From positions 1-60,315 of the forward strand of contig CACHLP010000003.1 of NCBI GenBank assembly GCA_902580665.1: a stretch of DNA of 60,315 nt. The letters run 5' to 3'. The translations under genes and the position numbers were made by a program. Shown piece by piece: positions 6,338-52,365 of this stretch. The notes below the pieces were generated by a model. It made no database searches, was not told the origin of the DNA, and was given only the letters and a program-made list of their open reading frames with translations. Each line of letters begins with the position of its first letter. The first letter of the stretch is position 1. The DNA comes from an uncultured Pelagibacteraceae bacterium. Its GTDB lineage: Bacteria > Pseudomonadota > Alphaproteobacteria > Pelagibacterales > AG-422-B15.

Positions 6338-7543
6338 ATGCAAAAAGACTATGATTTAATCATATATGGCGCCACAGGATTTACTGGCCGTTTGGTGGTG
6401 GAGTATTTGGACAATAATTATTCTGAAATCAAATGGGCAATCGCTGGCAGGAATGAAGAAAAATTAAATAAAATATCAAGCAACACTGCCTATAAACCTA
6501 AATATTTCATTGCTGATAGTGAAGATATTGCCGGTTTAAATAAGATTGCTGCTCAAACAAATGTCATAGCTTCTTTGGCAGGTCCTTTCAATCGATACAG
6601 TGATAAATTGGTAGGATGTTGTGTGAACAATAATACCCATTATGTAGATATTACTGGTGAAAATATATGGGTTAGAGATTTAATAGATAAACATCATGAA
6701 GAAGCAGAAAAAAAAGGGATTAAGATCATTCCTTCATGTGGCTATGATTCAATTCCATCAGATATGGGATGTTTTTATTTACAAAGATCTCTTGGTGAAA
6801 ACTTATTGTCTGTTGATGGTTATCATCGTGGAGGCGGTGGTGTAAGCGGTGGAACAATTGAAAGTGCTTTTACAATGAAAAATTATAAAACAAAATACTC
6901 AATCGGACACCCTTTCCTATTAAATAGCAAAGATTTTATAGAAAAACAAAATAAAGAAGCTAGTAAAGACACATTTAAAATAAAGTACATTGACAGCATT
7001 AAATCATGGTCTGCACCTTTTGTTATGTCTATTGCTAACACAAGAGTTGTCAGAAGGAGTGTAGAATTACATGAGCTTAATCAGTCAGGTTATGGATCGG
7101 ACTTTGCTTATAAAGAGTTTATGAATGTTAAAAAATATTCTTCTGCCCTAATGGTATCAATTGGATTAGCAATATTAGGATTAATGATTGTAAGTCCAAT
7201 AAGTTCTTTGTTTAGAAAATTATTTACAAAGCCAGGAAATGGACCTGATAAAAAAACGCGTGATAACGGATGGTTTGAAAGTATATTTATTGGCAAAAAC
7301 ACTAATAATGAATTTTATAAGTTGAGAATTTATGGCGATGGAGACCCAGGGTATAAAACTACAGCTAAATTCATATGTGAGTCTGCATTATGCTTAGTTA
7401 AATCTGATGGGTATTTAGAAAATACAAACAAAGGAGGGGTCTTAACTACTGCAACTGGACTTGGAGAGCATCTCATAAGAAGACTTAAAAACGCAGATAT
7501 ACTCTTTGAGGGACCAGAAAAGATTGCAAAAACATACACTTAA
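6338..7543 (+). CDS. Saccharopine dehydrogenase-like NAD(P)-binding protein
   Basis: N-terminal Rossmann motif IIYGATGFTGR. Length (401 aa) and a C-terminal hydrophobic segment are typical of the Sacchrp_dh_NADP family. Confidence 0.7.
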   Translation: MQKDYDLIIYGATGFTGRLVVEYLDNNYSEIKWAIAGRNEEKLNKISSNTAYKPKYFIADSEDIAGLNKIAAQTNVIASLAGPFNRYSDKLVGCCVNNNTHYVDITGENIWVRDLIDKHHEEAEKKGIKIIPSCGYDSIPSDMGCFYLQRSLGENLLSVDGYHRGGGGVSGGTIESAFTMKNYKTKYSIGHPFLLNSKDFIEKQNKEASKDTFKIKYIDSIKSWSAPFVMSIANTRVVRRSVELHELNQSGYGSDFAYKEFMNVKKYSSALMVSIGLAILGLMIVSPISSLFRKLFTKPGNGPDKKTRDNGWFESIFIGKNTNNEFYKLRIYGDGDPGYKTTAKFICESALCLVKSDGYLENTNKGGVLTTATGLGEHLIRRLKNADILFEGPEKIAKTYT

Positions 7544-7615
7544 TTTGCAACCCAAAATGGGTGCTCAGGATCGTACAAAAGTATAATTATAGTGCATAAC
7601 AATTAGTTATATTTT

Positions 7616-7945
7616 ATGATTTTACAGAAAATAAACTCTGGAGTTTTTAACAATATGGTTCAAGATGAAACCGGTACCTTTGTTATGAATAAAAATCAAC
7701 CTTCTCATGTAAGCAGTGAAATTGACAATGACACTGTAAAGAAAATCAGAGAGCTGTCTAAATTAAGAAAAAGTATTGAACTTGATTTAAAAGCAATCGC
7801 AACAAAGACAAAAATCTCAACAAACCAATTAAAAAATATAGAATCATTCAAGTTTGAAAAATTACCTCCCAACCCGATGAGAACATCATTTATTGATCAA
7901 TATTGTTCAGTAATTGAAAAAGCAAATAAAATTAATTCTATTTAA
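7616..7945 (+). CDS. Small protein with RodZ/XRE-like helix-turn-helix
   Basis: 109 aa. The segment LKAIATKTKISTNQLKNIESFKFEKLP resembles the RodZ N-terminal HTH. Confidence 0.4.
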   Translation: MILQKINSGVFNNMVQDETGTFVMNKNQPSHVSSEIDNDTVKKIRELSKLRKSIELDLKAIATKTKISTNQLKNIESFKFEKLPPNPMRTSFIDQYCSVIEKANKINSI

Positions 7946-8397
7946 GGATAATTTCTTTTCAAAAGCTTATTATATAAATAAGCGAATAAAACTAACATCA
8001 ACGCACCAACAGCTACTGGAAACAAAACAAAAGATATTCCTTGTCCCGTTAAAATAACAATAATCGGATTAGCGCCTGCAGGCGGATGTATAGTATTTGT
8101 AATAGTCATTATAAAGATTGCTAATCCTACGGCTAATCCCAGTGCTAGAAAATGATCGCCAATTATATATAAAACAATAACACCAGATAAAGCGGATAAA
8201 GTATGTCCAAGTAAGATATTGCTTGGTTTAGCTAATGGACTATCATGCACAGCCATCACCAAAACCATTGAAGCACCGAATGGCGGAATCAGCCAAATTG
8301 TTCCCTCAAATGAATTTTCTAGATAAGCTAAAAAACTTATGAAAATTGATGCTCCAAGCGCACTCAATAATGCATTGATTATTTTGTTATTATTCAT
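7942..8397 (-). CDS. HPP family membrane protein
   Basis: 151 aa, 4-5 TM helices, HPPAGA signature. Confidence 0.75.
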   Translation of the reverse strand: MNNNKIINALLSALGASIFISFLAYLENSFEGTIWLIPPFGASMVLVMAVHDSPLAKPSNILLGHTLSALSGVIVLYIIGDHFLALGLAVGLAIFIMTITNTIHPPAGANPIIVILTGQGISFVLFPVAVGALMLVLFAYLYNKLLKRNYP

Positions 8398-8399
8398 TA

Positions 8400-8810
8400 A
8401 TGATAACTATGATGATTAAGCTCTACATTACAACATTTATATATTTTATTATTATTGATTTAATAGGTATCAGTTTATTTGTTAGAAAAGTTTATGAAAA
8501 AAACTTGCCGAAAGATGTAAAATTAGATTTTAACCTACCAGTTGCATTGATTTTTTATTTTATTTTTGTATTTGGTTTAGTTTATTTTGTCATAGCTCCA
8601 AATAAAGATAATGGCGTTTCATCAATTATAATACCTTCTGTTATTTATGGCCTTGTTACTTACGCTACTTATGCGCTAACTGTAAAAGCTGTATTTAATA
8701 CACTTAATACACAAATAATTGTGTTTGATATCATATGGGGAATGTTATTGTGCCTATCGATATCAGTCCTCACTATTTATACTGTTTCTAAATTTGAGTT
8801 TCTGAATTAA
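8400..8810 (+). CDS. Small polytopic membrane protein of unknown function (DUF2177-like)
   Basis: 136 aa with four hydrophobic helices. The family assignment is tentative. Confidence 0.45.
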   Translation: MITMMIKLYITTFIYFIIIDLIGISLFVRKVYEKNLPKDVKLDFNLPVALIFYFIFVFGLVYFVIAPNKDNGVSSIIIPSVIYGLVTYATYALTVKAVFNTLNTQIIVFDIIWGMLLCLSISVLTIYTVSKFEFLN

Positions 8811-8851
8811 AGATTGTCATATATTTTAATTCTAATAAATTAAAAATTCGT

Positions 8852-8941
8852 GGAGAGGTGGCTGAGTGGTCGAAAGCATCAGTCTTGAAAACTGACGAGG
8901 GAGCAATTCCTCCGTGGGTTCGAATCCCACCCTCTCCGCCA
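8852..8941 (+). tRNA. tRNA-Ser (anticodon UGA), CCA encoded
   Basis: Acceptor stem GGAGAGG/CCTCTCC. Anticodon arm is TCAGT-cTTGAaa-ACTGA. There is a long variable arm, a T arm GTGGG-TTCGAAT-CCCAC, and a terminal GCCA. Confidence 0.95.
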
Positions 8942-8976
8942 TAAACTTCAAATGAATTTGATTTAGTAATAATTAT

Positions 8977-10647
8977 TTATCGCTGGTCAGTCTGATAATT
9001 GGGGCTCTGCCAAGTTTGTAACTCTATGCGAGTTAGAGGTTTAGAGCCTAATATTTCGTCACTAATTTTTTCAGCGATCATTATTGTAGGCGCGTTTGTA
9101 TTGCCATTTGGAGCAAAAGGCATGATAGAGGCGTCAACAACTCGTAGACTATTGATGCCGTGAACTTTACCTGAATTATCTACTACTGCATATTTGTCTG
9201 TTTTTAAACCCATACGTGCTGTGCAAGCTAAATGCCATTGACTAGTCGTGTGCAAGTTTAGTTTGGCATCGAGGTCAGCATCTGACTTACAATTATCACC
9301 AGGAAAAATCTCTTCACCTTTTAAGTCAGAAAATGACGGTTGATCTAATAATTCGCGAACTAAATGAATTCCTTTACGCATTAATTCCCTATCACGTTTA
9401 TCTTTTAGATAATTAACTAGAATACGAGGTGGATCAGCAGGGTTATTTGAGCGCAATTCAATCTTGCCGCGACTATGCGTACGCATTAAACCGACGTGTA
9501 CCTGAAACGCATGTTCCTTTAAGGGTTGCCATGAATTATTTTCCATCGCAATTGGTGAAATACATAATTGCAGGTCTGGATATTCAACTCCTGGTCCAGA
9601 CCTAATACATGCAACTGAGTCAAAATGATTAGATGCACACATACCTTCTTTTGTTAAAAGCCATTGAATGCCAGCACCTATGCTATTTAGTCTTTTTGTC
9701 TTTGGCCATAATGTTACCGGCTTTAAACATTTATATTTTATCATAAAATCAGGATGATCCTGAAGGTTTTGTCCAACGCCAGGCATGTCAGCTTTAAGAT
9801 TAATACCCATTGATTTCAGATGATCCTTTGGACCAATTCCTGAAAGCATTAATATATGCGGAGATCCAACCGCACCGGCACAAAGGATGACTTCTTTATT
9901 TGATTTCACATTAAATATTTTATTCTTATTATCTTTAAAACAAACTCCTGTTGCCTTGTTATTTTCAAGAATTAATTTGCACACAAGTGCTTTTGTAATA
10001 ATGGTTAAATTTTTTCTATCACGCACTGGGTCAAGATATCCTCGTGTTGTACTCCATCTTTCTCCTTTAAATACAGTCCGATCAAAAATGCCAAAACCTT
10101 CCTGGCAATATCCACTAATGTCATCTGTTTCTTTGTATCCTGCTTCTTTTCCTGCATTAATAAAGGCAATGGAAAGTGGATCTTTGGGTATGCTTCTATG
10201 CACTCTTAAGGGTCCAGAATCGCCTCTAAAATCATCTCCACCGCCACTATACGACTCCATTTTTTTAAAATAAGGCAAAACATCAGCGTAACCCCAGCCG
10301 TCACAACCCATTTGTCTCCAGCCTTCATAGTCCAATGAATTTCCCCGAATAAATACCATGCCATTTATTGATGAAGATCCACCAAGAGTTTTGCCACGAT
10401 CATGTTGCAGCTGTCTCCCTGCAAGTTCAGGTTCTGGTTCGCCTTTAAATGCCCAATTATGCTTTGTACTTTTAAGGTTTAATAAGACGGCACCGGGCAT
10501 TTTCAACGTTATGGATTTATCTTCCCTGCCAGCCTCAAGAAGAAGAACACGGTTTTGTGGATTTTTTGATAATCTGTTTGCTAATACACACCCAGCTGAG
10601 CCAGCGCCAACTATGATATAATCATATTCAGTGTCTATATTTTTCAT
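8977..10647 (-). CDS. GMC-family FAD oxidoreductase, choline dehydrogenase-like
   Basis: N-terminal FAD fold DYIIVGAGSAGCVLANRLS. 556 aa. GMC C-terminal region with the active-site His region (..NGNTNAPTIMIAEK..). Confidence 0.8.
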   Translation of the reverse strand: MKNIDTEYDYIIVGAGSAGCVLANRLSKNPQNRVLLLEAGREDKSITLKMPGAVLLNLKSTKHNWAFKGEPEPELAGRQLQHDRGKTLGGSSSINGMVFIRGNSLDYEGWRQMGCDGWGYADVLPYFKKMESYSGGGDDFRGDSGPLRVHRSIPKDPLSIAFINAGKEAGYKETDDISGYCQEGFGIFDRTVFKGERWSTTRGYLDPVRDRKNLTIITKALVCKLILENNKATGVCFKDNKNKIFNVKSNKEVILCAGAVGSPHILMLSGIGPKDHLKSMGINLKADMPGVGQNLQDHPDFMIKYKCLKPVTLWPKTKRLNSIGAGIQWLLTKEGMCASNHFDSVACIRSGPGVEYPDLQLCISPIAMENNSWQPLKEHAFQVHVGLMRTHSRGKIELRSNNPADPPRILVNYLKDKRDRELMRKGIHLVRELLDQPSFSDLKGEEIFPGDNCKSDADLDAKLNLHTTSQWHLACTARMGLKTDKYAVVDNSGKVHGINSLRVVDASIMPFAPNGNTNAPTIMIAEKISDEILGSKPLTRIELQTWQSPNYQTDQR

Positions 10648-24562: not shown

Positions 24563-25240
24563 ATGAGCAATATATTAATCATAGGAGCTAATCGAGGCCT
24601 AGGGCTTGAGTTTGCAAAGCAATACAGCAATACAAACCATAATATAATTGTAACTACTCGAAATAAAAATAACTCAACAGAGTTGAATGAAATTAATAAT
24701 ATCGATATCGCTGAACTTGACTTAACTTCTGATGAAAGCGTGAATAATTTTGTAACAAGTATCGAGTCTCAAAAAATTGACATACTCATTCACAACGCAG
24801 GAATTTTTAGTGAAGAGCAATTAAAAGAAGATCTTGATACAGATGCCTGGATGAATGAAATGAGAATTAATGCTGTGATACCCATAATTCTTGCACGAAA
24901 ATTAAAGAACAACTTAAAAATGGGATCCGATAAAAAAGTAGTTTTTATATCCAGTCAAATGGGAAGCATTGATGACAATTACTCTGGTAGATTTTATTTT
25001 TATCGCTCATCAAAATCAGCTCTTAATTCTGCAGCAAAAAGTTTATCAATAGATTGGAAAGAAGATGGTATATCAGTCCTTATTTTGCACCCAGGATGGG
25101 TAAAAACAGATATGGGTGGCACAAGTGCCAAATTAGACACACCAGAGAGCATTACTCAAATGATCACTGTTATAAATGAACTAAATCTCGATAACTCTGG
25201 CTCATTTTTAAATTATGAAGGAAAAAAGCTCGAATGGTAA
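24563..25240 (+). CDS. Short-chain dehydrogenase/reductase (C-factor-like SDR)
   Basis: Cofactor motif IIGANRGLG, NAG, and catalytic YRSSK (YxxxK). 225 aa. Confidence 0.8.
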   Translation: MSNILIIGANRGLGLEFAKQYSNTNHNIIVTTRNKNNSTELNEINNIDIAELDLTSDESVNNFVTSIESQKIDILIHNAGIFSEEQLKEDLDTDAWMNEMRINAVIPIILARKLKNNLKMGSDKKVVFISSQMGSIDDNYSGRFYFYRSSKSALNSAAKSLSIDWKEDGISVLILHPGWVKTDMGGTSAKLDTPESITQMITVINELNLDNSGSFLNYEGKKLEW

Positions 25241-25860
25241 AAGATCATACACACGATAAACCTGATTTCTATAATGATCTTGATAAGACTTATGAAAATA
25301 TTTGGGATCAACTCATAATTGGTAAATCAAAGTCAAAATCTGAATTGCATCAAGGTTATATTTCAACATTCAATGACTCATTTCCATCGGTTAGAACAGT
25401 AGTACTCAGACATGTTGATAAGAAAAATAATACCATAAGTTTTCATACGGATATCCGATCCAGTAAAATTGATGAAATCAAAAAAAACAATTCTGTAACT
25501 ATGCTGTTTTACGATCATGGCAAAAAGATACAAATTAAAGTTTCAGGAAAAGCTGAAATCAATCATAAAAATGATAAAGCAAAATTAGCCTGGGATAATT
25601 CAAGATCATTTAGTAAGAAATGTTATGTTGTTGAAAAGGCACCTGGAACTCCATCGGATGAACCAACTTCAGGTTATTTACCAGAGCATGAAAACGAACT
25701 GCCGGACGATGATCTTTTACAAAACGGTTACAACAACTTTACTTTAGTGGAAATTCAAATTCACTCAATTGAGTGGCTTTATTTGCATCGTCAAGGTCAT
25801 CGCCGAGCATTGTTTACAACCACAAATGGCAGTTTAAACAAAGAATGGCTAACGCCATAA
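25234..25860 (+). CDS. Pyridoxamine-5'-phosphate-oxidase-like FMN-binding split-barrel protein
   Basis: 208 aa. PNPOx-like pattern (..PSVRTVVLRH.., ..IEWLYLHRQGHRRALF). Overlaps the SDR stop by 7 nt. Confidence 0.6.
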   Translation: MVKDHTHDKPDFYNDLDKTYENIWDQLIIGKSKSKSELHQGYISTFNDSFPSVRTVVLRHVDKKNNTISFHTDIRSSKIDEIKKNNSVTMLFYDHGKKIQIKVSGKAEINHKNDKAKLAWDNSRSFSKKCYVVEKAPGTPSDEPTSGYLPEHENELPDDDLLQNGYNNFTLVEIQIHSIEWLYLHRQGHRRALFTTTNGSLNKEWLTP

Positions 25861-25896
25861 TAGTGTCTAAATAAAGCAAGAAAAGGTTAAATAGTT

Positions 25897-26733
25897 TTGA
25901 AATATTTGTCAGAAAATAGATATAAAGGAGAGATAAAAGGTTTGGTATTAGACTGGAGTGGAACTACTGCTGACGCATACGTGATTGCTCCAACTATAGT
26001 GTTTGTTGAGGTTTTTAAGAAACAAAAGGTTGTAATCTCCATGGAAGAGGCAAGAGAACCCATGGGTTTACGAAAAGATTTACATATAAAAGCACTCACA
26101 GAGAACGCTGAAATAAGAAAGCGCTGGAACATAGTACATGGTAAAGACCCACAAATGTCTGATGTTGAAAATATGTACGCAGATTTTGTTCCACTGCAGC
26201 TTAAATGCTTAAAACAATACTCAAAATTATTACCCGGAACAGCAGAAGTAATTAAACGGGTTCAAAATAGCGGTATAAAAGTTGGTTGCACAACTGGTTT
26301 TGTGCGGTCAATGGTTAATATTTTAGAGGAAGAATCAGCAAAACAGGGATATGTCCCTGATGCGTCAGTTGCAGGTGATGATGTTAAAAATGGCGTTCGG
26401 CCCCTTCCCCACATGTTATATAAAAATTTAGATATAATGAATATAGAATCCATTCAATCAGTTATAAAAGTTGATGATACTGTTTCAGGAATTGGAGAAG
26501 CAATTAATGCTGGTTGTTGGGGTGTTGGTGTAACGCGATATTCGAATTATATGAATATAAATTCCTTAGAAGAAGCTGATGAACTGAGTAAAGAAGAAAT
26601 TGATATGAAACAAGGATATGCAAAAGATCTGCTTTATAAAGCAGGTGCGCATTACGTAATAGAAACTATTGCAGATATCGAGGCCGTTATTGATGATATT
26701 AACAAAAGGCTTTCACGTGGTGAAGGGCCTTAA
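25897..26733 (+). CDS. phnX: Phosphonoacetaldehyde hydrolase (phosphonatase), HAD superfamily
   Basis: HAD motif I LDWSGTT. EEAREPMGLRKDLHIKALTE contains the Schiff-base Lys context of PhnX. Also GCTTGF and VDDTVSGIGEAINAG. Apparent TTG start. Confidence 0.8.
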   Translation: MKYLSENRYKGEIKGLVLDWSGTTADAYVIAPTIVFVEVFKKQKVVISMEEAREPMGLRKDLHIKALTENAEIRKRWNIVHGKDPQMSDVENMYADFVPLQLKCLKQYSKLLPGTAEVIKRVQNSGIKVGCTTGFVRSMVNILEEESAKQGYVPDASVAGDDVKNGVRPLPHMLYKNLDIMNIESIQSVIKVDDTVSGIGEAINAGCWGVGVTRYSNYMNINSLEEADELSKEEIDMKQGYAKDLLYKAGAHYVIETIADIEAVIDDINKRLSRGEGP

Positions 26734-27245
26734 AAGTTGATTACAAATTTTTCTTGTTCCTCTGTTTCAATTGTACCTGGCCGGCAATTCCTTACATGAT
26801 TTATGCATTGCTTTGAATCTAGTCCTAGTGCCTTTAAAATAAGTGAAGCAAACATTCCAGATCTACCTAATCCAGCATAACAATGCAGGTAAACATTTTT
26901 ATTGAGTTCTAACTGAGTAACACAATCTCTGATAATTTGACTATATTCATTTTTTTTAATCTGAGCTGGAATACCATAGTTTTTTATGGGCATGCTGTAG
27001 GCCCTAACATTCTTCTCCTCTAGATCTTTATGGAACTGATTAATTTCAAAATTTCTAATTTCATTAAGTTCTATCAATGAAACAACGAGTGATATATTTA
27101 AGTCGATGATAATGGTTAAATCTTTTTTATAAGTAAATTTATCAAATCTAGAATTACTGATACCTGGACAACTGGATATAACCAAATTACCAAGATTTTT
27201 TTTTGCTTTAACAATTTTCGAAAGCTTTATTTTAGTAAAGTTCAA
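26730..27245 (-). CDS. Cys-based dual-specificity/tyrosine-phosphatase-fold protein
   Basis: P-loop HCYAGLGRSG (HCX5R[ST]). 171 aa, no signal peptide. The TTG start overlaps the stop of the upstream HD-domain gene (TTGA). Confidence 0.7.
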   Translation of the reverse strand: MNFTKIKLSKIVKAKKNLGNLVISSCPGISNSRFDKFTYKKDLTIIIDLNISLVVSLIELNEIRNFEINQFHKDLEEKNVRAYSMPIKNYGIPAQIKKNEYSQIIRDCVTQLELNKNVYLHCYAGLGRSGMFASLILKALGLDSKQCINHVRNCRPGTIETEEQEKFVINF

Positions 27246-27841
27246 ATATAGGACTTTGTAATAAAAGGATGAAAGAATGAAATAGCTTCAGTTTTCTTTC
27301 CCCTAATTTTTGCATTGTCATCATACTTTCGAAGTCTTACTGCATCTTCAAAATATTTATGACTTTCCAGTTTTCGAATAGCATCTTTGTTTAAATATCC
27401 GCCTTGAAGTTTAAAACTTCTTTTGGAGCCATCTGAAAGACCGTCATAATAATCTGATTGAACGGAACATAGATATCTCTTTGCAATAACGTGCATTTTA
27501 ATTGGGTAAGTAACTTCTTCAGGGAAATACTTGGATAAAAAAGATGCAGCAACGTTTTCATGATACTTGTCATTGTTTAAAAAATCATGGCTATTTACAT
27601 CTTCGCCAGTCAACATATGCCCTAAATCGTGAAATAATGAAGCAGTAATAAATTTATCACTTTCATTATTTTCTTTAGCTAAGGTTGCGCACTGAAGAGC
27701 ATGTTGTAATTGAGTAATCTCTTCGTCATAAAAACTGCACGAACCTCTTTGATCAATAATTTCACATAAAACATTGGTACGCTCAATAATTGAAGCTGAA
27801 TTTAATTTATTTTCTAGAGATTGGATTTTATCTAATTGCAT
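27242..27841 (-). CDS. HD-domain protein of the PhnZ/TmpB-like diiron oxygenase type
   Basis: 199 aa. Ordered ligand-like motifs are QLQHALQCA, LFHDLGH, YHEN, MHVIAKRYL, LQGG, KYDDNAK. These mirror the PhnZ pattern as I recall it. Confidence 0.6.
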   Translation of the reverse strand: MQLDKIQSLENKLNSASIIERTNVLCEIIDQRGSCSFYDEEITQLQHALQCATLAKENNESDKFITASLFHDLGHMLTGEDVNSHDFLNNDKYHENVAASFLSKYFPEEVTYPIKMHVIAKRYLCSVQSDYYDGLSDGSKRSFKLQGGYLNKDAIRKLESHKYFEDAVRLRKYDDNAKIRGKKTEAISFFHPFITKSYI

Positions 27842-27886
27842 GATTTAAATGATTAATTATATTTTTTTTAATGTCAATAATTTGAG

Positions 27887-27936
27887 CAGTAACATTAGTG
27901 TAATAAATTGCAAAATATCTGTAATAAAAATGCAAC
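27887..27936 (+). promoter_or_regulatory. Pho-box-like direct repeats in the divergent phnZ-like / phnC spacer
   Basis: CAGTAAC-atta-GTGTAAT (27887-27904) and CTGTAAT-aaaa-ATGCAAC (27919-27936). This is the 7-4-7 architecture of PhoB sites (E. coli consensus CTGTCAT-N4-CTGTCAT). Confidence 0.5.
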
Positions 27937-27975
27937 TTTGATTTAATTTTTTTGTATTAGTTTTCATTAATACTA

Positions 27976-28779
27976 ATGATCAAAGTAGAGAAATTAAATA
28001 AGTATTTTGGTGACAACCGTGCAGTAAACGATGTCACATTTGAAATTAATAAACCTGAAATGATTGGTATCATTGGCAGATCTGGTGCTGGAAAGTCAAC
28101 ATTACTGAGAATAATGAATCGTCTAACCGACGCAACTAGTGGATCTATTTTTATTGAAGGCAGAAATATACTTTCATTAACAAAGAAAGACAAACGAGCA
28201 TGGCAAAAAGATTGTGCCATGATATTTCAGCAATTCAATCTTGTGCCCCGTTTAGATGTTTTAACAAATGTAATTCTTGGAAGATCAAATATTCAAGGTA
28301 CTTTACGATCAAGCTTAAAACTTTTCACTAAAGATGAACGCGTTGATGCATTGATGGCTCTGGATAAATTGGGAATGGCTGAAACCGCGCTGCAAAGAGC
28401 AGAGACTTTATCTGGTGGACAGCAACAAAGGGTTGCAATTTGTAGAGCTATGATGCAGCAACCAAAAATGATTTTAGCCGACGAGCCTATTGCATCGCTA
28501 GACCCTCTTAATGCCCGACTTGTAATGGAATCACTTAGAAATATTCATAGAGAAAAGCAGATTACTGTTCTTGCAAATCTTCATACTCTTGATACCGCTA
28601 AAAATTATTGTGACAGAATCATTGGCATGAGACTTGGGGAAATTGTTTTTGATGATGTACCTTCAAGTTTAAAAGATGATGTTGCTAGAGAAATTTATGG
28701 CGCTGAAGCTGAAGAAGCATTTGAACCAACAGTTACTTCAACTTCACTTGGTGACAAACAGTTTGCAGAGGCAGGATAA
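27976..28779 (+). CDS. phnC: Phosphonate ABC transporter ATP-binding protein
   Basis: Walker [10 protein letters not shown], signature LSGGQQQR, Walker B ILADEP. Context with phnD/phnE. Confidence 0.9.
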
Positions 28780-28831
28780 TGTTAGCCTTTTCAAAAAAAA
28801 ACTTAACAACTAACAAGGAGATATACTAAAA

Positions 28832-29791
28832 ATGATTAAAAATTTAGTAAGGTCTATTATTGCTTGTTCATTCCTTTTCGTGTCTGCAAATGCATACGCA
28901 TGGGATGTATCTGGCTATAAAGGGCCAACAATGGACTTGAGTAAATATCAACCTGAAATGAGACTTGGATTTTTAGGCGATGAATCAGCTCAAGACATTA
29001 TTAAGAATAATGCATGTCTAAAGGAATATGCGGAAGTTGCATATGGAGTACCAGCTAAAATTTATACTTTTAAAGATTATGCAGGAACAATGGAGTCAAT
29101 GCTTGGTGGCAGCTTAGATTATGCTTGGTTTGGCTCATCAGGATATGCGGGTATATATCTAGAAGATCCTACCGCTACTGTACCAATTTTAACCAGAATG
29201 CAGCCAACAGGAGATATGGGCTATTATTCAGTCATGGTTACAAGATCAGACTCGGGTATCAATTCACTTGATGATTTAAAAGGTAAATCTTTTGGATGGG
29301 CTGATCCTAATTCAACATCTGGTTATCTAATACCATCAATCGAATTAAAAGCTGCAGGAATGGATCCAGACTCATACTTTGGCTCTACACAATTTTCAGG
29401 TGGTCATGAAAATAACGTTTTGGCAGTTCTTAATGGTGATATCGATGCAGGTGTGACATGGGTATCTGGAGTTGGTGAATGGAGCGAAGGTTACTCTTCT
29501 GGAAATCTGAGAAAAATGGTTGATAAAGGACTATTAAATATGGATGACATCAAACAGATTTGGTCATCTGCTTTGATACCAAATGGACCGATTGTAATGC
29601 CAACTAATATGCCTGTGAGAGCGCATCAGGTCATGGTAGGCATGAAGCAGTGGATCCATGAAAATGACCCACAATGCAGCGAGAATGTTGCAAATGGAGT
29701 TGTTAAAGCTTGGGTGCCAGTCGACCATAGTTTCTATGAAACTATTGTAGCTGCTCGTAAAGCTAAAATTGAAGCTAAAAAAGCCGAATAA
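28832..29791 (+). CDS. phnD: Phosphonate/phosphite ABC transporter substrate-binding protein
   Basis: Signal peptide. PhnD-like blocks (..DPNSTSGYLIP.., ..GGHENNVLAVLNGDIDAG..). Position between phnC and phnE. Confidence 0.85.
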   Translation: MIKNLVRSIIACSFLFVSANAYAWDVSGYKGPTMDLSKYQPEMRLGFLGDESAQDIIKNNACLKEYAEVAYGVPAKIYTFKDYAGTMESMLGGSLDYAWFGSSGYAGIYLEDPTATVPILTRMQPTGDMGYYSVMVTRSDSGINSLDDLKGKSFGWADPNSTSGYLIPSIELKAAGMDPDSYFGSTQFSGGHENNVLAVLNGDIDAGVTWVSGVGEWSEGYSSGNLRKMVDKGLLNMDDIKQIWSSALIPNGPIVMPTNMPVRAHQVMVGMKQWIHENDPQCSENVANGVVKAWVPVDHSFYETIVAARKAKIEAKKAE

Positions 29792-29808
29792 ATTTCGGTA
29801 GTTGTTTG

Positions 29809-29847
29809 CTAACTTAAGAGGATGGCATGCCCCATCCTCTTAGTTAG
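29809..29847 (+). other. Long intercistronic hairpin between phnD and phnE
   Basis: CTAACTTAAGAGGATGG-catgcc-CCATCCTCTT(A)GTTAG gives a ~16-bp stem with one bulge. No strong T-tract follows. Confidence 0.6.
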
Positions 29848-29855
29848 TTGTTTAT

Positions 29856-30722
29856 TTGGAGGAAACAGTGCAATCATCATTGCCAGAAAATTTAATTAAA
29901 ATTGAAAATAATTTAAAATCTCTTACAAGAACAAGATCAATTTATTCTTTTCTCTCAATTGCGGCATTGATAGCAGTTATTTATTCGGGTTTAATTGTAG
30001 CAGAAACAGGAAATGCGACTAGCATCTGGGTTGGATTACCTAAATTTTTCGATTACCCAGTTGATCTATTTGTTGGGTCATGGGAATACGGCTATAGATG
30101 GAATTTATTGTTACTTGAATACCTTCCAGATTTAATAAGCACTATTAATATGGCTCTATTTTCAACAGCAATGGGTACGTTGCTAGCCTTTTTTTTAAGT
30201 ATTTTTTCAAGTCGTAATCTAATCAAAAGTAAAACTACTGTATTAATATTTCGACGCATCATGGATATATGCAGATCGTTTCCAGAATTAGTTATTGCGC
30301 TTGTTTTGTTGTATCTACTGGGAAAGTCAGCACTGCCTGCTGTAATTGCCATCATAATTCATACCGCAGGAGCTCTTGGCAAATTGTTTTCAGAAGCTAT
30401 TGAGAATGTCGACAAAAATCCAATTGAAGGTCTTGAGTCCTGTGGAGCTTCATGGTTTACCAGAATAAGATTTGGTGTGGTAACTCAGGCACTCCCTCTA
30501 TTTCTAACTTACACAATTTTAAGATTTGAGATTAATATAAGGGCTTCAACTATTTTGGGATTTGTTGGCGCTGGAGGTATCGGTGAGCAACTTTACACTA
30601 ATATACAGTGGAAATATGAAGCTGACACTATTGCAATAATGTTTTTACTTGTGTCTACGATCATTGCATTGGATTACTTATCAAGTTATTGGCGAAAATC
30701 ATTAATAGGATTGAAATCATGA
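29856..30722 (+). CDS. phnE: Phosphonate ABC transporter permease
   Basis: 288 aa, 6 TM helices. PhnE-like EAIENVD...G..S.GAS loop. TTG start per the ORF track. Confidence 0.85.
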   Translation: MEETVQSSLPENLIKIENNLKSLTRTRSIYSFLSIAALIAVIYSGLIVAETGNATSIWVGLPKFFDYPVDLFVGSWEYGYRWNLLLLEYLPDLISTINMALFSTAMGTLLAFFLSIFSSRNLIKSKTTVLIFRRIMDICRSFPELVIALVLLYLLGKSALPAVIAIIIHTAGALGKLFSEAIENVDKNPIEGLESCGASWFTRIRFGVVTQALPLFLTYTILRFEINIRASTILGFVGAGGIGEQLYTNIQWKYEADTIAIMFLLVSTIIALDYLSSYWRKSLIGLKS

Positions 30723-32128
30723 ACAGGTCTGAAATTATTAAAAATTATTCAGATATAGTAGTTACTAAATTTTCATCTAAAATGTGGTCAACTTTTTTAG
30801 TGCTCGGGATTATAGTGTATTTAATCATAGCAATTTTAAGCCTCGACATATTGCAGATTCATAAAAAATGGAGTCCTGAAAGAGCTTCTTTGTTTGCCCT
30901 CGACACATATGCACATAAAGACCATGTCACAATGAAATGGAGTGAACCAGATGATATAATTATATCCTTTGAAGGAAGCAGGTGGTCTCAGTATGTTGGC
31001 CCCTATCAAAAAAGTGACGGTCTTCCAGAAAGGTATCCTGAATGGACTTCCATAGGTCCAGAGGGTGAAACAAAAATAAGTTTTAAAAATGGAGGGTTTG
31101 CAAATCTATACGATGATAAAGTTACAATAGAAAACTGGCCAGACACCAAAGAAACACTTGTTTTTCGTCTTGATGCACAAGGTAAGCCTTACGTTGAAAA
31201 TGTAGATAATCTCCCAAAATGGATAAGGGTAACGGAAAATAAAATAGAGGTTAGACCATCTCTTTACGAAAGAGTTCAAGTTTATTCAAAAAAAGTTGAA
31301 GTACATAGGTACAATCTTGGTTGGAACTATTTCTGGTTTGACTTTGACAGTCCTTTAGAACCATATGGAATTTGGAATGCTATTTCACTTTCATTCTCAG
31401 GCGATAGAGTTGACCCCAATATTTCAAATTTTTCGCTTCTAATTCAAGAATTTCTAAATAATGATATGTGGCATCATGGACAAATATTGTGGGCTTTATT
31501 AGAGACAATTTTTATGGCTCTATTGGGCACCCTACTAGCAGCTCTTCTGGGTTTTCCTCTGGCATTTTTTGCAGCTTACAATGTAACGCCTTTTAAATTT
31601 GTTCGAACGATATTAAGACGGTTATTTGATACATTAAGAGGCATCGATTTTTTGATTTGGAGCTTAATTTTTTTAAGAGCCTTCGGACCAGGACCATTTA
31701 CTGGAATATTTGCTATTGCAATTACAGATACAGGAACTCTTGGAAAATTAATGTCTGAAGCAATAGAAAACACTGAAGAAAAGCAACAAGAAGGTGTAGA
31801 GTCTACGGGAGCGAATAAAACTCTTCAACACAGATTTGGAATTATACCTCAAATACTTCCTATTTTTATTTCCCAAACTCTTTACTACTTAGAGTCAAAC
31901 ACGAGAGGAGCTGTTATTATAGGTGCCATGGGCGCAGGCGGCATAGGTTTACAATTACTTGGAGCAATAAATACGGGTACCAGTTGGGAAAATGTTATGT
32001 ATATGTCATTATTGATTTTAGGAGTTGTTATTTTCATGGATACAATGTCCGCAAAAGTAAGAAGAGCTTTGATTGGTGATGAAACGCTAGGAGCAGAATT
32101 ACAATTGGCAAAAATGGCAAAAAAATAA
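30719..32128 (+). CDS. phnE: Phosphonate ABC transporter permease, second copy with ~200-aa extracytoplasmic insertion after TM1
   Basis: An ATGA overlap with the upstream phnE stop favours ATG 30719. The C-terminal ~250 aa is PhnE-like (EAIENTEEKQQEGVESTGAN). The N-terminal part is one TM helix plus a ~200-aa hydrophilic domain. Confidence 0.8.
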   Translation: MNRSEIIKNYSDIVVTKFSSKMWSTFLVLGIIVYLIIAILSLDILQIHKKWSPERASLFALDTYAHKDHVTMKWSEPDDIIISFEGSRWSQYVGPYQKSDGLPERYPEWTSIGPEGETKISFKNGGFANLYDDKVTIENWPDTKETLVFRLDAQGKPYVENVDNLPKWIRVTENKIEVRPSLYERVQVYSKKVEVHRYNLGWNYFWFDFDSPLEPYGIWNAISLSFSGDRVDPNISNFSLLIQEFLNNDMWHHGQILWALLETIFMALLGTLLAALLGFPLAFFAAYNVTPFKFVRTILRRLFDTLRGIDFLIWSLIFLRAFGPGPFTGIFAIAITDTGTLGKLMSEAIENTEEKQQEGVESTGANKTLQHRFGIIPQILPIFISQTLYYLESNTRGAVIIGAMGAGGIGLQLLGAINTGTSWENVMYMSLLILGVVIFMDTMSAKVRRALIGDETLGAELQLAKMAKK

Positions 32129-32181: not shown

Positions 32182-32619
32182 ATGACCAAATTTATTCAAT
32201 TCTTTTTAATAACGTCGTACATGTTATCATCTCTTGCTCTTGCAGACAGTCATGAAGACAATACAATTGGGCAAGCTGGAAGTGACTATTCTACCAATAC
32301 TGAAAGTACATACGAGAGCAATATAGGAAACTGTGAAGATTTAAGTATATTAATGCTCCGTGGATCAATTAAAAACGATATACAGCGAGCTGACCCAGAT
32401 TCAGCAACGAAAGCACATAATTTAATGCTTGAAGGAATGGAATTGTGTAATAAAAATCAAAACGTCCTTGCAAAAATGAAATTGAAAGAGGCTCAAACTA
32501 TAGCGAGAGAAGGCAATGTTGCCGGACAAGATATGAGAATTGGAATTGTTAATGAGTCAGACGAACTGCAAGAAGAGACAGAAAATGAAAAAGAAAAGTC
32601 ATGGTGGCAGATTTTTTAA
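32182..32619 (+). CDS. Secreted hypothetical protein (acidic C-terminus)
   Basis: 145 aa with a signal peptide (..SSLALA/DS). No recognisable family. Confidence 0.5.
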   Translation: MTKFIQFFLITSYMLSSLALADSHEDNTIGQAGSDYSTNTESTYESNIGNCEDLSILMLRGSIKNDIQRADPDSATKAHNLMLEGMELCNKNQNVLAKMKLKEAQTIAREGNVAGQDMRIGIVNESDELQEETENEKEKSWWQIF

Positions 32620-32964
32620 CTACACCTCTTCTAATAACGTACAAAAGCCAGGATCACTACCATTAAAAAAAGTTTCTATATTAGAAGAACAGTGATTAAT
32701 CACACATTGGTCTGACTCATAAAAATAATCATTAATATTTTTAGCTGATTTAATATTCTGCAACATACAAAGACTATACTCATTGAAGTTACTGCTAGGA
32801 TGAGTATTAAAATATATTTCACAATTAATTATTGTCTCATCGTACCCTATTTCTAGAGATGAAGTGTTTTGAAAGTAAGCTATACAACTCTTAAAGTCGT
32901 CAGCATAGATGTTTGTGCTCAGCAGAATTTTAAAAATGAACATTAAAAGTACGAATCGTTTCAT
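32620..32964 (-). CDS. Secreted Cys-rich hypothetical protein
   Basis: 114 aa, signal peptide (..TNIYA/DD), 7 Cys. No recognisable family. Confidence 0.5.
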   Translation of the reverse strand: MKRFVLLMFIFKILLSTNIYADDFKSCIAYFQNTSSLEIGYDETIINCEIYFNTHPSSNFNEYSLCMLQNIKSAKNINDYFYESDQCVINHCSSNIETFFNGSDPGFCTLLEEV

Positions 32965-32980
32965 GTAATATTATTGTAAT
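32963..32980 (+). promoter_or_regulatory. Pho-box-like 7-4-7 repeat upstream of the MFS gene
   Basis: ATGTAAT-atta-TTGTAAT. A further TTGTAAT lies 21 nt downstream (32995-33001). Confidence 0.3.
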
Positions 32981-33095
32981 ATTTCTTAACATTTTTGTAA
33001 TATTTAAAAATTGGTAAACAATCTATTTTTTAACTATTGTAAAAATAACAAATTTATTCAATGACTTATAAAACAAATACTAAACAGGCATCAAG

Positions 33096-34307
33096 TTGAA
33101 AGAAAATAATAGTTTATTTCCTGTTCATACTATTGGAATTGTAACAATCATTGGTTACGGATTTTTATTCTATACTATTGCCCCATTAAAAGAGTATATC
33201 TCACTGCACACCAATTTAAGTGAGGAATTAATTCTCACAATGTTTAGTTTAGCACTGTTATTTCAAGCCCTATTAGCGCCTCGGATTGGAAAATGGTCAG
33301 ACCATCATGGAAGCCTAATCGTAATTAAATACGGCCTGTTATTAGGTATGATAGGCTCAATTTTTATTGGAATAACAGAGATTGATTTATTTATTTTCAA
33401 AAATGTATTGTGGGTGTTTATTTCTATGTTTCTAATTACCTTGGGGCTTGGTATGTCAACCTATGAGGTAGCGTTTAATGCGGCAGTCCAAATGGATGAA
33501 ATCAATTCTAGAAAAAATATTTCAATAATTACTTTTTATGGAGCGGTAGCGAGCACTATTACCTGGCTTTCAATTTATCCACTTATATACAATGTAGGTT
33601 TATTCTATACGTGTTTATTTACTTCAATTATTTTATTAATTGGCTATGTACTTGTGTCCTCAAAGGAAATGAAATACAAATCAAATATAGAATACTTAAA
33701 TGAAAGTAAGTTATTATTTAATTGGAATGAGCTAAAGAAGACACAAAAGAAATCATTTTTTTATATTACAATATCCTCTTCTTTACAAAATTTCTTTTTT
33801 GTAGCATTTACCCTTGCATTAGTAAATTTTTTTACAGAAACATTTAATGACATTAGTATCGCGGTTGTACTTGCGAGTATATATGGCCCGTTTCAACTTG
33901 TAGGAAGATACTTGGAAATGAAAATTGGAAAGCATTACGACGCAAGATATACAGGCTTAATAGCCTTTTTGTTTGTAATTTTTTCAATTTTTACAGCTCA
34001 ATTTACAAATAATATTTTTGTTGCCGCAATTAGTATGGCTTTTTTCGGAATGGGTCACGGTGTTTTAACAATAACATATGGTTATGTCACCAATATGTAT
34101 TTTGAGTCACAAATTTATGGCCAAGCTAAAGGGTGGATGGCCCTTTCAAGGAGCATTAGCTTTGCCGTAGGTCCAGCATTAGGTGCACTTCTTTTTGCGT
34201 ATAATTTAAACTTATTTACGATTACGATTGTAACAACTGCAATCCTATCAGCGTTTTCTTTCTCACTAATAATTTTCGAGAAACCTACAAATCAAATGCA
34301 CAAATAA
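33096..34307 (+). CDS. MFS transporter
   Basis: 403 aa, ~12 TM helices in 6+6 architecture. TTG start per the ORF track. Confidence 0.75.
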   Translation: MKENNSLFPVHTIGIVTIIGYGFLFYTIAPLKEYISLHTNLSEELILTMFSLALLFQALLAPRIGKWSDHHGSLIVIKYGLLLGMIGSIFIGITEIDLFIFKNVLWVFISMFLITLGLGMSTYEVAFNAAVQMDEINSRKNISIITFYGAVASTITWLSIYPLIYNVGLFYTCLFTSIILLIGYVLVSSKEMKYKSNIEYLNESKLLFNWNELKKTQKKSFFYITISSSLQNFFFVAFTLALVNFFTETFNDISIAVVLASIYGPFQLVGRYLEMKIGKHYDARYTGLIAFLFVIFSIFTAQFTNNIFVAAISMAFFGMGHGVLTITYGYVTNMYFESQIYGQAKGWMALSRSISFAVGPALGALLFAYNLNLFTITIVTTAILSAFSFSLIIFEKPTNQMHK

Positions 34308-48965: not shown

Positions 48966-48994
48966 GTTACATGTTTATAACAGTTTTATTACAG
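48966..48994 (-). promoter_or_regulatory. Pho box upstream of pstS
   Basis: Minus strand reads CTGTAAT-aaaa-CTGTTAT-aaac-ATGTAAC, three 7-bp repeats at 11-bp phasing. These are followed by 10 nt and the -10-like TAATTT. Confidence 0.6.
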
Positions 48995-50871: not shown

Positions 50872-52365
50872 TTAAACAAATATAATCTTTTGTGATAATT
50901 TTTTGTGCTTTGAAAGCATTAAAATAAATTTATTAAATCTACTGTTTAAAAGTTCTGAATAGTTTTTTGGGATAGAAAATATCAAATTTGAATCTTTTAC
51001 ATAAATACTGATATTGCTGTAATTAAAATTAGATAATTTTCCAATTTCATATACAATTCTTAAGAATAATCCAAGCTCAATACTGCTTAATAATTTATTT
51101 TTATTTATAACTTCTCTATAATCTTTTATCTCATTTAGATCTATTCCATTGTGAAAAACATAAATAACAGTAGCGAGTGTAACTCTGTCAGAATGGCTAA
51201 ACTTTAATATTTCTGATTTTAATATTTGTTTAAATACAAACAATCCCCTCTCGTCACGAGCTATACTGTCTCCCGTTGATAAATAACTTATAGAGGACAC
51301 TCTTATTCTTTTATTTAAATAGGATTTTCTTTTAAAAAAATTATTTGTGAATAATTTAATATTCTCATAATTTACGGCACTAGGATTTAATTCGTTAGAA
51401 ATTGCAGCAACTTTTAATGATTGATATTCAAGCGGATCGCTATTTGAGCTTAAGCTTAATTTATTAGAAATATAACCTTCTCTGATAGCTGTGTATGAAA
51501 TAACTACTTGCTTAGCAGAGGCCTTATTTATTATTTCCATCGCGACCTTGGCTGCGTATCGTATAAATGGTGTTTTATCTTTTGTAATTAATGAATATTG
51601 TTGCAAATCCTTTTTTTTAAAATTTGAAACTTCTTCAAGCATTGATACAAAGTTGTCAAAATCAGGTTTGAAATGATGAATGACTTTGAGAGGATAGCTG
51701 TACTTATCAAAATATAATTTAACTAAAGCTCTCCACGTGCCGCCTGTAAGGATTACCCTTTTAAACTTATTTTCATTAAGCCATTCAGTATTTTGTAGAG
51801 AGTTTTTGAATTTTTCTATTATTTTTTTATTTTTAGTTTTTGCTCTGTGAACACCTAGAGGCAAAGACAATGTATTCATTATTTCTTTCTTTTTAACTTC
51901 TGCGAGTTCTAAGCTGCCACCGCCGAGATCGGCAACGAGACCACTTGATTTTTTTAGGCCAACAATACACCCCATGGCAGAAAATTTTGCTTCTTCATCG
52001 CCAGTTAATACATGTATTTTCTTTTTAAAAATATTTTCTACATCAGCAACAAATGATTCTCTATTTCTAGCAACACGGACAGCTTCTGTTGCAAAAATTT
52101 CAAAATTTTTAATATTTGATGAGTCTATCAATTCCTTTATATAATAGAACGCATTCATTGCTCTTTTTATAGAGTCTTTATTAAGCTTATTGTTTTTAAT
52201 TAGATCTTTACCTAACCCACATGAAATTTTTTTATTAAAAATAGCTATCTGATTATACCTAAAGTTTTCAAAAATTTGAAAACGAACTGTATCAGAGCCA
52301 ATATCAATTATTGCAATGCGTTCGTCTTTAAAAAATAATTTTTTTTTGGGAATTAAATTATTCAT
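50872..52365 (-). CDS. ppx: Exopolyphosphatase (Ppx/GppA family)
   Basis: ASKHA-fold N-terminus IAIIDIGSDTVRF and DLGGGSLE. 497 aa. 8-nt overlap with ppk. Confidence 0.85.
   Translation of the reverse strand: MNNLIPKKKLFFKDERIAIIDIGSDTVRFQIFENFRYNQIAIFNKKISCGLGKDLIKNNKLNKDSIKRAMNAFYYIKELIDSSNIKNFEIFATEAVRVARNRESFVADVENIFKKKIHVLTGDEEAKFSAMGCIVGLKKSSGLVADLGGGSLELAEVKKKEIMNTLSLPLGVHRAKTKNKKIIEKFKNSLQNTEWLNENKFKRVILTGGTWRALVKLYFDKYSYPLKVIHHFKPDFDNFVSMLEEVSNFKKKDLQQYSLITKDKTPFIRYAAKVAMEIINKASAKQVVISYTAIREGYISNKLSLSSNSDPLEYQSLKVAAISNELNPSAVNYENIKLFTNNFFKRKSYLNKRIRVSSISYLSTGDSIARDERGLFVFKQILKSEILKFSHSDRVTLATVIYVFHNGIDLNEIKDYREVINKNKLLSSIELGLFLRIVYEIGKLSNFNYSNISIYVKDSNLIFSIPKNYSELLNSRFNKFILMLSKHKKLSQKIIFV

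Follow-up and report, generated by a model that had tools for sequence, protein, structure and literature searches.

A PhnZ-family oxygenase gene without a hydroxylase partner, and its KAP-like cysteine phosphatase neighbor, in a SAR11 phosphorus island

How does an oxygenase of the PhnZ type come by its hydroxylated substrate when no hydroxylase gene lies beside it, and what is a phosphatase gene doing in its place? Both questions are raised by a gene pair in a 60,315-nt stretch of DNA from an uncultured Pelagibacteraceae (SAR11) bacterium (GenBank assembly GCA_902580665.1, contig CACHLP010000003.1, positions 1 to 60,315), the whole of which is called the window here. On its minus strand, a gene for a PhnZ-family HD-domain oxygenase (27242..27841, 199 aa) that has no hydroxylase partner is followed by a gene for a Cys phosphatase resembling KAP/CDKN3 (26730..27245, 171 aa, with no hydrophobic stretch at the N-terminus). 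A first-pass annotation had read the two as a distinct, Pho-controlled two-gene module coupling a PhnZ-like oxygenase to an HCX5R phosphatase, a pairing thought to be undescribed. The best explanation for the locus, which we favor with moderate confidence, is that an orphan PhnZ oxygenase scavenging α-hydroxyphosphonates and an uptake-associated phosphatase are co-transcribed within a SAR11 phosphorus island.

Both open reading frames (ORFs) lie where they were first annotated, and the HD protein contains all five of the ligand-like blocks that had been singled out (QLQHALQCA, LFHDLGH, YHEN, MHVIAKRYL, and KYDDNAK). Within these blocks are H47, H71/D72, H75, H94, H117, and D174. In alignment, six of these residues (H47, H71, D72, H94, H117, D174) fall in the metal-ligand columns of PhnZ and TmpB, and across a 25-sequence family alignment the six ligands and H75 of the HDLGH motif are invariant, as are K121, R122, Y123, and L124 in the block 117-HVIAKRYL-124. 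The extra histidine of the HDxGH motif is the counterpart of PhnZ His62. NCBIfam models of the PhnZ type match the protein with E-values of 1e-44 to 1e-55. The best of these is NF052439 (Gimesia PhnZ1 hydroxymethylphosphonate dioxygenase; 187.8 bits against a cut-off of 300), which leads the general Phn-HD model TIGR03276 (177.6 bits, cut-off 214.6) by only 10 bits; the TmpB model NF049941 gives 151.2 bits (cut-off 300). On these scores the protein is a divergent member of the family that sits inside no named equivalog. A sequence search of the PDB returned matches to TmpB (6NPA; E 2e-30) and PhnZ (E ~5e-24) only. When the AlphaFold (AF2) model of the protein (predicted local distance difference test, pLDDT, 91.3) was used to search PDB folds, the only significant matches were again PhnZ (template modeling, TM, scores of 0.82/0.90) and TmpB (0.80/0.84), with the top 10 all being PhnZ or TmpB at E ~1e-11 to 1e-10; neither MIOX (E 0.27) nor HD phosphohydrolases, among them YfbR and the RelH type (E > 0.7), gave a significant match. 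The first assignment therefore holds: with six of six diiron ligands, PhnZ-type profile matches, and PhnZ/TmpB folds, the protein groups with these enzymes and not with HD phosphohydrolases, and by family it is predicted to be a mixed-valent diiron oxygenase of the PhnZ/TmpB type.

Its likeness to the characterized enzymes is nevertheless partial. PhnZ of HF130_AEPn_1 (4MLM/4MLN/4N6W/4N71; partner PhnY*) is the best fold match and has the same ligand columns and HDxGH histidine, but is only ~29-30% identical; the Tyr found 10 residues before its first His ligand corresponds to Phe37 in the SAR11 protein, with Tyr38 one position later. TmpB of Leisingera caerulea (6NPA; partner TmpA) is the best sequence match among solved structures, although the SAR11 protein scores 151 bits on its model against the cut-off of 300 and has no partner of the TmpA (TauD-family) kind. 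The closest resemblance appears to be to GmPhnZ1 of Gimesia maris (NF052439; partner GmPhnY*, NF052437), the best model, with the same ligands, the same length, and a common 'SFYDE' register before the first His ligand. This register is found only in the SAR11 protein and the Gimesia-type PhnZ1 clade, whereas in PhnZ, TmpB, and two other orphan HD proteins the Tyr stands one position earlier. Full-length identity to the clade is only 41-46%, however, and the SAR11 protein lies on a long branch and under the 300-bit cut-off. Close relatives of the HD protein are at least 85% identical where aligned, and include a 91% identical copy on marine metagenome contig L001, which has SAR11 island synteny; beyond these, identity falls to 41-50%. 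Nine of the next relatives were scored, giving 232-279 bits on the PhnZ1 model. A neighbor-joining tree places the SAR11 protein as a long-branch sister of the Gimesia-type PhnZ1 clade, and on tree and register the gene is probably a divergent offshoot of that clade.

What the offshoot lacks is the hydroxylase. At all four loci that were looked up among the three closest non-SAR11 relatives (L021-L024), a PhyH-family gene of 260-262 aa directly precedes the HD gene and its end overlaps the HD start by 8-11 nt; one such PhyH protein was scored and reached 353 bits on the methylphosphonate hydroxylase model. The SAR11 gene has no upstream PhyH gene; it faces phnC and is followed by the phosphatase gene. 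Profile scans of window ORFs of at least 100 aa (all but a few that lie mostly within longer ORFs) gave zero matches to the PhyH/TauD family, and tblastn with a PhnY*-like PhyH protein was likewise without a match, both for the window and for 20 related SAR11 loci. The earlier statement that no PhnY*/TmpA-type hydroxylase is encoded in the window is borne out and extends to these 20 loci, while the closest non-SAR11 relatives all have one. Since the nearest relatives (43-50% identity) are paired with PhyH and the SAR11 copy is not, the SAR11 copy appears to be a genuine orphan. A PNPOx-like FMN protein and an SDR flanking the pair (24563-25860) were considered as a substitute for the hydroxylase and rejected: both also flank the locus of a lineage with a deletion in this region (described below) and locus L026, with different alleles, and so belong to the chromosomal backbone, not to the island.

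Other PhnZ-family genes also occur without an adjacent PhnY*-type gene. HD oxygenase genes of the TIGR03276 type beside phnS2T2U2 have been placed in a proposed HpnWXZ context (bioRxiv 10.1101/2020.11.04.368217). Locus L076 is such a case and carries a phosphatase relative in addition, but its HD protein is 41% identical to that of the window and falls on a different tree branch. The window gene has phnCDE and a genuine phnX (TIGR01422) as its neighbors, whereas the HpnWXZ type is associated with phnS2T2U2 and a PhnX-like gene. A different sort of PhnZ-family gene lacking PhnY* is seen at L111, L142, L143, and L144, where the HD gene comes after a gene of the AP_endonuc_2 family (xylose-isomerase-like TIM barrel) and an ABC importer of the Opp/Dpp type that is accompanied by a LysR regulator; relatives of this type are labeled TmpB in some database entries.

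The second gene of the pair encodes a protein with the P-loop HCYAGLGRSG at residues 121-130 (H121-C122-YAGLG-R128-S129), in which the family alignment shows no variation at H121, C122, G125, G127, R128, and G130. Three Pfam families exceed their cut-offs, namely PTP-SAK (47.8 bits vs 27), Y_phosphatase (35.4 vs 20.9), and CDKN3 (24.2 vs 20.7), and PDB sequence matches are to small archaeal protein tyrosine phosphatases (PTPs) and DUSP23 (E 1e-9 to 3e-8). The best fold match of its AlphaFold (AF2) model (pLDDT 95.4) is human KAP/CDKN3 (1FPZ/1FQ1; TM 0.80-0.82, with 1FQ1 at 0.82, over 173 columns), followed by PRL, SsoPTP, and VHZ. The HCX5R assignment made at first pass is thus well supported by motif, families, and fold, and the protein is by family and modeled fold a cytoplasmic KAP/CDKN3-like Cys phosphatase. 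We take the KAP layout to be common to both proteins, with an N-terminal CPG strand, a PIxD loop, an HCxxGxGRS loop, and a Gln-containing C-terminal loop. Identity to KAP is only ~20%, and the window protein differs in being bacterial and stand-alone, in having Asn89 for Asp, and in its phosphorus-import rather than cell cycle context. The small archaeal and atypical PTPs (Tk-PTP 5Z5A, SsoPTP 2I6I, and human VHZ/DUSP23) likewise have the same P-loop and ETxEQ loop but keep the Asp of the PIPD loop. To our knowledge, none of these PTPs, nor the PRLs, is linked to phosphonate or phosphate uptake.

In the catalytic apparatus, all aligned family members keep Cys122, Arg128, and Gln164, the last in a Q-loop reading IETEEQ; in PTPs the C-terminal-loop Gln positions the hydrolytic water. 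The column of the general-acid Asp, however (consensus HxPIxDxxxP; 'PIPDF' in Tk-PTP/ShufPTP), is occupied by Asn89 (PIKNYGIP). Asn is found there in 17 of 17 SAR11 copies checked and in their closest relatives, L027, L028, L030, P0126, P0128, and P0133, while Asp is kept in L029, L036, L076, and L111. Replacement of the general-acid Asp by Asn cripples turnover in classical PTPs, and by analogy Asn89 would predict either substrates whose leaving groups are good (anhydrides, acyl phosphates) or a slow, sensor-like turnover. Of the 18 SAR11 loci that have the gene, the 17 copies with the exact start motif are all intact, with dN/dS of 0.19-0.34. Residues 1-20 are conserved in relatives and are modeled as a confident strand (pLDDT >=90; block means 94 and 90), which supports the TTG start that overlaps the HD stop. 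The internal TTG at codon 21, used by some gene callers (P0122, 151 aa), was rejected as the true start on the same grounds.

A word-index search with the phosphatase returned only matches of at least 97% identity, and relatives were therefore gathered by an exhaustive HMMER search, which yielded 3,169, the best outside SAR11 being 38% identical. Neighborhoods were examined at 80 metagenome loci, chosen as the best tblastn matches to one P-loop pattern (25 of the 80 fall below 3 kb in length), and at a few more from exact look-ups, using the island proteins together with phnS2/T2/U2, phnW, and TauE as queries; the P0128 contig, at 913 bp, is uninformative as to context. Phosphorus-importer links were found beside the phosphatase-like gene in 14 of the 80 loci. 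The gene stands directly after phnT2-phnU2 on the same strand (a putative ATP-binding cassette (ABC) importer of 2-aminoethylphosphonate (2-AEP)) in L040, L059, L066, L069, L076, and L096, and convergent with phnU2 in L033 and L053. It directly precedes phnCDEE in L029 and L106-108, lies inside a carbon-phosphorus (C-P) lyase cluster in L036, is divergent from phoR-pstSCAB in L028 and 2.5 kb from phoBR in L037, adjoins PHO4-like (PiT) genes in L027 and L066, and converges with phnX-phnW in L026. Across these loci identity ranges over 47-100% for PhnU2 and 33-100% for the phosphatase, so that the importer linkage spans a wide divergence. Only two further lineages (L111 and L076) have a PhnZ-like HD gene together with the phosphatase. 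By the same test, none of 29 viral-contig loci of distant relatives has a phosphorus-gene link, although these relatives (<=33% identity over >100 residues, several on contigs of giant viruses, GVMAG) serve only as a rough negative control. Gene order in this sample shows the conserved partner of the predicted phosphatase clade to be phosphorus import, with the PhnZ link recurrent but secondary.

Several of these loci have features of their own. Downstream of phnS2T2U2 and the phosphatase gene, L066 carries a PiT (PHO4) gene and a PhoU_div gene (6381-8104), and L096 a HAD hydrolase gene and a Na/Pi-cotransporter-PhoU fusion (6548-9656); both regions have the look of compact phosphorus islands in genomes other than SAR11. 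In four low-GC marine contexts (L027 1900-2658, L030 461-1264, L106 5346-6125, and L109 1149-1898), the gene adjoining the phosphatase-like gene encodes a membrane protein of the TauE/SafE family, with split TauD-family fragments nearby in L109.

In the explanation we favor, substrate would most likely enter through the divergently encoded PhnCDE importer. With no PhnY*/TmpA-type hydroxylase nearby, the HD enzyme most likely acts on phosphonates that other organisms have already 1-hydroxylated, for example hydroxymethylphosphonate (HMP) or (R)-1-hydroxy-2-aminoethylphosphonate ((R)-HAEP), which it would cleave with O2 to phosphate and formate or glycine. GmPhnZ cleaves both compounds (review PMC10574752). 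The phosphatase would be an accessory of phosphorus uptake, recruited behind phnZ in the island, and would probably release phosphate from phosphorylated molecules that are taken up or build up together with phosphonates. Several considerations weigh against this explanation. The substrates proposed for both enzymes are guesses from sequence. The HD protein scores under every curated equivalog cut-off, and its specificity may therefore differ from that of PhnZ1. Asn89 argues against efficient hydrolysis of alkyl phosphate esters, weakening an 'ester scavenging' role for the SAR11 phosphatase. The neighborhood sample is biased, being the best 80 matches to one pattern with many short contigs and viral controls. 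The two genes again lie side by side in L111 and are less tightly associated in L076, so that a functional link between them is possible, and it is also possible that a hydroxylase is encoded elsewhere in SAR11 genomes, beyond the regions covered.

A bolder version, possible but held only tentatively, would make KAP-like Cys phosphatases a dedicated and thus far unrecognized component of bacterial phosphonate and phosphate import, and the SAR11 operon a streamlined, hydroxylase-free pathway to hydroxylated phosphonates. The basis would be the conserved place of these genes at the 3' end of phnS2T2U2 operons and next to phnCDE, pst, and PiT genes. The phosphatase could then carry out a specific step, such as hydrolyzing imported cargo that is phosphorylated or held in an anhydride linkage; another option is that the importer could be gated through a long-lived phosphocysteine state.

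Two further alternatives are both unlikely. The first supposes that a PhnY*/TmpA-like 2-oxoglutarate hydroxylase elsewhere in the SAR11 genome supplies the oxygenase from methylphosphonate or 2-AEP. The search for a hydroxylase took in 60 kb of the genome studied and at most 16.6 kb from any related one, and SAR11 genomes are compact and may have pathway genes scattered, all of which leaves room for such a gene. A remote location would depart, however, from all four characterized versions of the pathway, in which the hydroxylase gene is adjacent to or fused with that of the oxygenase (PMC10574752), and from all four loci of the closest relatives above; moreover, the remaining phosphonate and phosphate genes known from this genome cluster in the island, where the hydroxylase is not. 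The second improbable alternative gives the phosphatase a regulatory role, as a slow enzyme or pseudo-phosphatase that would sense phosphate or phosphoryl status through its Cys/P-loop and modulate the importer or PhoR/PhoB, by analogy with PRL-CNNM. Its genomic partners are chemically diverse (phosphonate ABC importers, Pst, PiT, and phoR/phoBR), making a single common substrate hard to name; the SAR11 clade has Asn for Asp at the general-acid position, and PRL phosphatases are among the best fold matches. Yet the Cys, Arg, and Gln loop are all kept and Asp is retained in many uptake-linked relatives (L029, L036, L076, and L111), so that the clade looks catalytic, and there is no sign of any protein partner.

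Whether the oxygenase and phosphatase genes form an operon, and under what control, can be judged from the junction and the spacer. As first described, the two genes overlap at TTGA (27242..27245, minus strand), where the TTG start of the phosphatase gene meets the TGA stop of the HD gene, an arrangement that suggests translational coupling. Seawater metatranscriptome contigs cover phnX, the phosphatase gene, and the HD gene, and two of them (27200-27713 and 27153-27728) cross the HD/phosphatase junction. In three of four metatranscriptome runs phnD depth is far above that of the HD gene, with the phosphatase gene and phnX also below phnD, and in the two deepest runs depth declines from the HD gene to the phosphatase gene to phnX, although depth over contigs is an unreliable guide to expression and some DNA may have been carried over. 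The 134-bp spacer between the HD gene and phnC (27842..27975) does hold the Pho-box-like repeats reported for it, in the form of a five-hexamer array (AGTAAC, TGTAAT, TGCAAA, TGTAAT, TGCAAC) in 10-11 bp phase at 27888..27936. The search pattern TGTWAYN5TGYWAY was taken independently from the region upstream of pstS, a first pattern having been dropped as circular because it was derived from the spacer site itself. It gives five matches in the window (0.56 expected), four of which lie upstream of phnC, pstS (motif at 48966-48993), and an MFS gene (32964) in the sense orientation of each gene; it also occurs upstream of pstS in L028, while no strict match lies directly upstream of phosphatase relatives in the other loci. 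The array is oriented as phnC (plus strand). Between it and the HD start is a sigma-70-like promoter candidate for the HD-phosphatase operon (27849..27877, minus strand; TTGACA, 17 nt, AATCAT), a consensus match only, at 10 of 12 positions, in a region where the count of such sites is not above the shuffled expectation. Reading the repeats as Pho-box-like is therefore sensible, but as the array is oriented for phnC and the HD gene has a consensus -35 (TTGACA) of its own, Pho control of the pair, asserted at first pass, is plausible but unproven. A related observation concerns the ArsK-like MFS gene (33096-34307, plus strand), which is preceded by phased TGTAAT repeats (32964-33000) of the type found upstream of pstS and phnC; this suggests that arsenical efflux is wired to phosphate starvation.

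The obligatory two-step scheme raised at first pass, in which the phosphatase unmasks a phosphorylated or esterified precursor that the oxygenase then cleaves, draws on the 4-nt start/stop overlap, on the contigs that cross the junction, and on the conservation of the pair: 18 of the 19 SAR11 genomes carrying the HD gene share one arrangement, in which the phosphatase gene stands directly downstream of it and phnX comes next. SAR11 copies are 93-100% identical, however, and their co-occurrence is weak evidence. More telling are L018 and metagenome contig L001, which are without phosphatase and phnX genes and whose HD proteins are 94% (L018) and 91% (L001) identical to that of the window. The two have a common junction, pointing to a single deletion, at which ~55 nt of the phosphatase 5' end are left and the HD gene is intact. 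HD dN/dS is ~0.3 against the window and 0.30 between L001 and L018, indicating that the oxygenase has been maintained under purifying selection without the phosphatase. Farther afield, an HD gene is followed by a phosphatase gene 173 bp away in L111 (identity to the window proteins 41% for the HD protein, 33% for the phosphatase), and both genes occur within one phnS2T2U2 cluster in L076, which would favor a joint pathway; L143 and L144, with HD proteins 59% identical to that of L111, are without the phosphatase. At L026 (403-2371), phnW-phnX converge on a phosphatase gene whose product is 94% identical to that of the window while its PhnX is just 69% identical. It looks as though the phnX module was swapped by recombination and the phosphatase stayed, and the difference also fits movement of HD and phosphatase genes as a unit. 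Against an obligatory scheme, most phosphatase relatives are found next to importers and their recovered flanks hold no HD gene, and the nearest relatives of the HD protein have a PhyH partner instead of a phosphatase. In addition, we know of no natural phosphorylated 1-hydroxyphosphonate. Co-conservation of the two genes therefore holds in 18 of 19 SAR11 genomes, L111, and L076 but breaks down in the deletion lineage and in L143/L144; the pair does not stand as a self-contained, obligatory module, and the two-step pathway is rather improbable.

It is very doubtful that the HCX5R protein is instead an arsenate reductase, detoxifying arsenate or an arsenical analog that enters through the phosphorus importers. 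Every type of partner importer can admit arsenate or arsonate analogs, and arsenate reduction needs no general acid. The island also holds arsC, an aquaporin-like gene, and the ArsK-like MFS gene behind its Pho-box-like array. The glycine-rich P-loop HCYAGLGRSG is typical of phosphatases, though, and the fold is that of a KAP-type dual-specificity phosphatase, not the low-molecular-weight PTP (LMW-PTP) or rhodanese fold of known arsenate reductases; moreover, the island already has an LMW-PTP-type ArsC. Although phnD and methylarsonate are discussed in a survey of SAR11 arsenic genes, that survey named only arsC and the aquaporin (PMC6426599). Finally, that the HD protein is an ordinary HD phosphohydrolase with coincidental ligand-like blocks, as its weak generic HD match (26.3 bits) and sub-threshold MIOX match in Pfam and the label 'HD family phosphohydrolase' on relatives in some database entries might suggest, is already contradicted by its PhnZ/TmpB homology, its six of six ligands with the extra His, and the lack of any significant phosphohydrolase fold match in the PDB, and merits almost no credence.

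The pair is embedded in a larger phosphorus locus. Profile scans of the ORFs show the ~35 kb around it to be a phosphate-acquisition (phosphate-starvation) island of the HTCC7211-type SAR11 (Pelagibacteraceae), within a window of ~32% G+C. The island runs from phnX through the phosphatase and HD genes, phnCDEE, and the ArsK-like MFS gene to phnF, phnGHIJKLN, a TIGR03223 gene, phnM, the aquaporin-like gene, and arsC, and then to phoB, phoU, pstBACS, phoR, ppx, ppk, and genes for a glycosyltransferase and a PlcP-like metallophosphoesterase. The phosphonoacetaldehyde hydrolase gene phnX (25897..26733, plus strand; TIGR01422 282 bits, cut-off 220) converges on the phosphatase gene, the two ends overlapping by 4 nt, and phnW (2-AEP transaminase) is absent both beside it and across the 60-kb window. 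On the other side, divergent from the HD gene, phnC, phnD, and two phnE genes (27976..32128, plus strand; phnC 322 bits, phnD 262.7 bits) encode the phosphonate ABC importer.

All 19 species-representative genomes that carry the HD gene are uncultured Pelagibacteraceae. PhnX, HD, PhnC, and PhnD are 96-100% identical in 18 of these 19 GTDB species representatives (L002-L020 compared with window 24563-29791), the HD protein of L018 being 94% identical. The SDR flanking the island is 92-95% identical across species representatives and only ~57% in L017/L018, and dS inside the island is 0.01-0.15 among SAR11 species representatives; the island looks recently spread or recombined among SAR11 species. 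Elsewhere in it, an ORF of 184 aa (54459-55013, plus strand) with a weak N-terminal match to the histidine-phosphatase family His_Phos_1 shares ~135 nt with the 5' end of ppk (52358-54595, minus strand), so that one of the two start calls is probably wrong. The island edge (55161-56987) holds the PlcP-like metallophosphoesterase and a GT4 glycosyltransferase, a lipid-renovation pair, upstream of which is a phased repeat, CTGTCAT-AAAA-TTTTAAT-ATTC-TTGTAAT, at ~57068-57100. In several lineages a small protein of 136-154 aa with a signal-peptide-like N-terminus is encoded next to phnE and/or the phosphatase-like gene (window 32182-32619, plus strand; L029 5996-6460; L036 4967-5389; L111 2184-2594; L112 935-1345). 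Its members are 23-30% identical, with a common block L(I/V/L)xxCDN(V/M), and Pfam and NCBIfam scans gave no match.

Parts of this locus have been noted before. The gene string 'phnZX' is already listed among the phosphonate genes of HTCC7211 (Grote, 2012, PMC3448164), and Pelagibacterales account for 45% of marine phnZ sequences in a study that treats phnZ as a marker of 2-AEP catabolism and reads it as the dominant route in the ocean (Lockwood, 2022, PMC9381506). In the searchable literature neither the missing SAR11 hydroxylase nor the gene between phnZ and phnX is remarked on, and searches of it for a connection of HTCC7211 or phosphonate clusters with tyrosine or dual-specificity phosphatases gave no result. 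The claim that the pairing is undescribed therefore holds, within that literature, for the phosphatase link but not for SAR11 phnZ itself. Sequence places the oxygenase in a known enzyme family, as a divergent, orphan member whose gene had been annotated in SAR11 before; what would be new, in a modest and biased sample, is a clade of KAP-like Cys phosphatases that travels with phosphonate and phosphate importers.

If the oxygenase does act on imported, already hydroxylated substrates, counts of SAR11 phnZ would reflect scavenging of pre-hydroxylated phosphonates rather than degradation of 2-AEP, and would point to a cross-feeding step in the marine phosphorus redox cycle. SAR11 can oxidize formate, according to work cited in PMC6581173, and the products, phosphate and formate or glycine, would suit such a formate oxidizer. 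A Cys phosphatase gene beside importers in many marine lineages is a lead to a missing function in phosphorus uptake clusters. A streamlined pathway of this kind, if real, would open hydroxylated phosphonates to the most abundant marine heterotroph, which would need no hydroxylase of its own.

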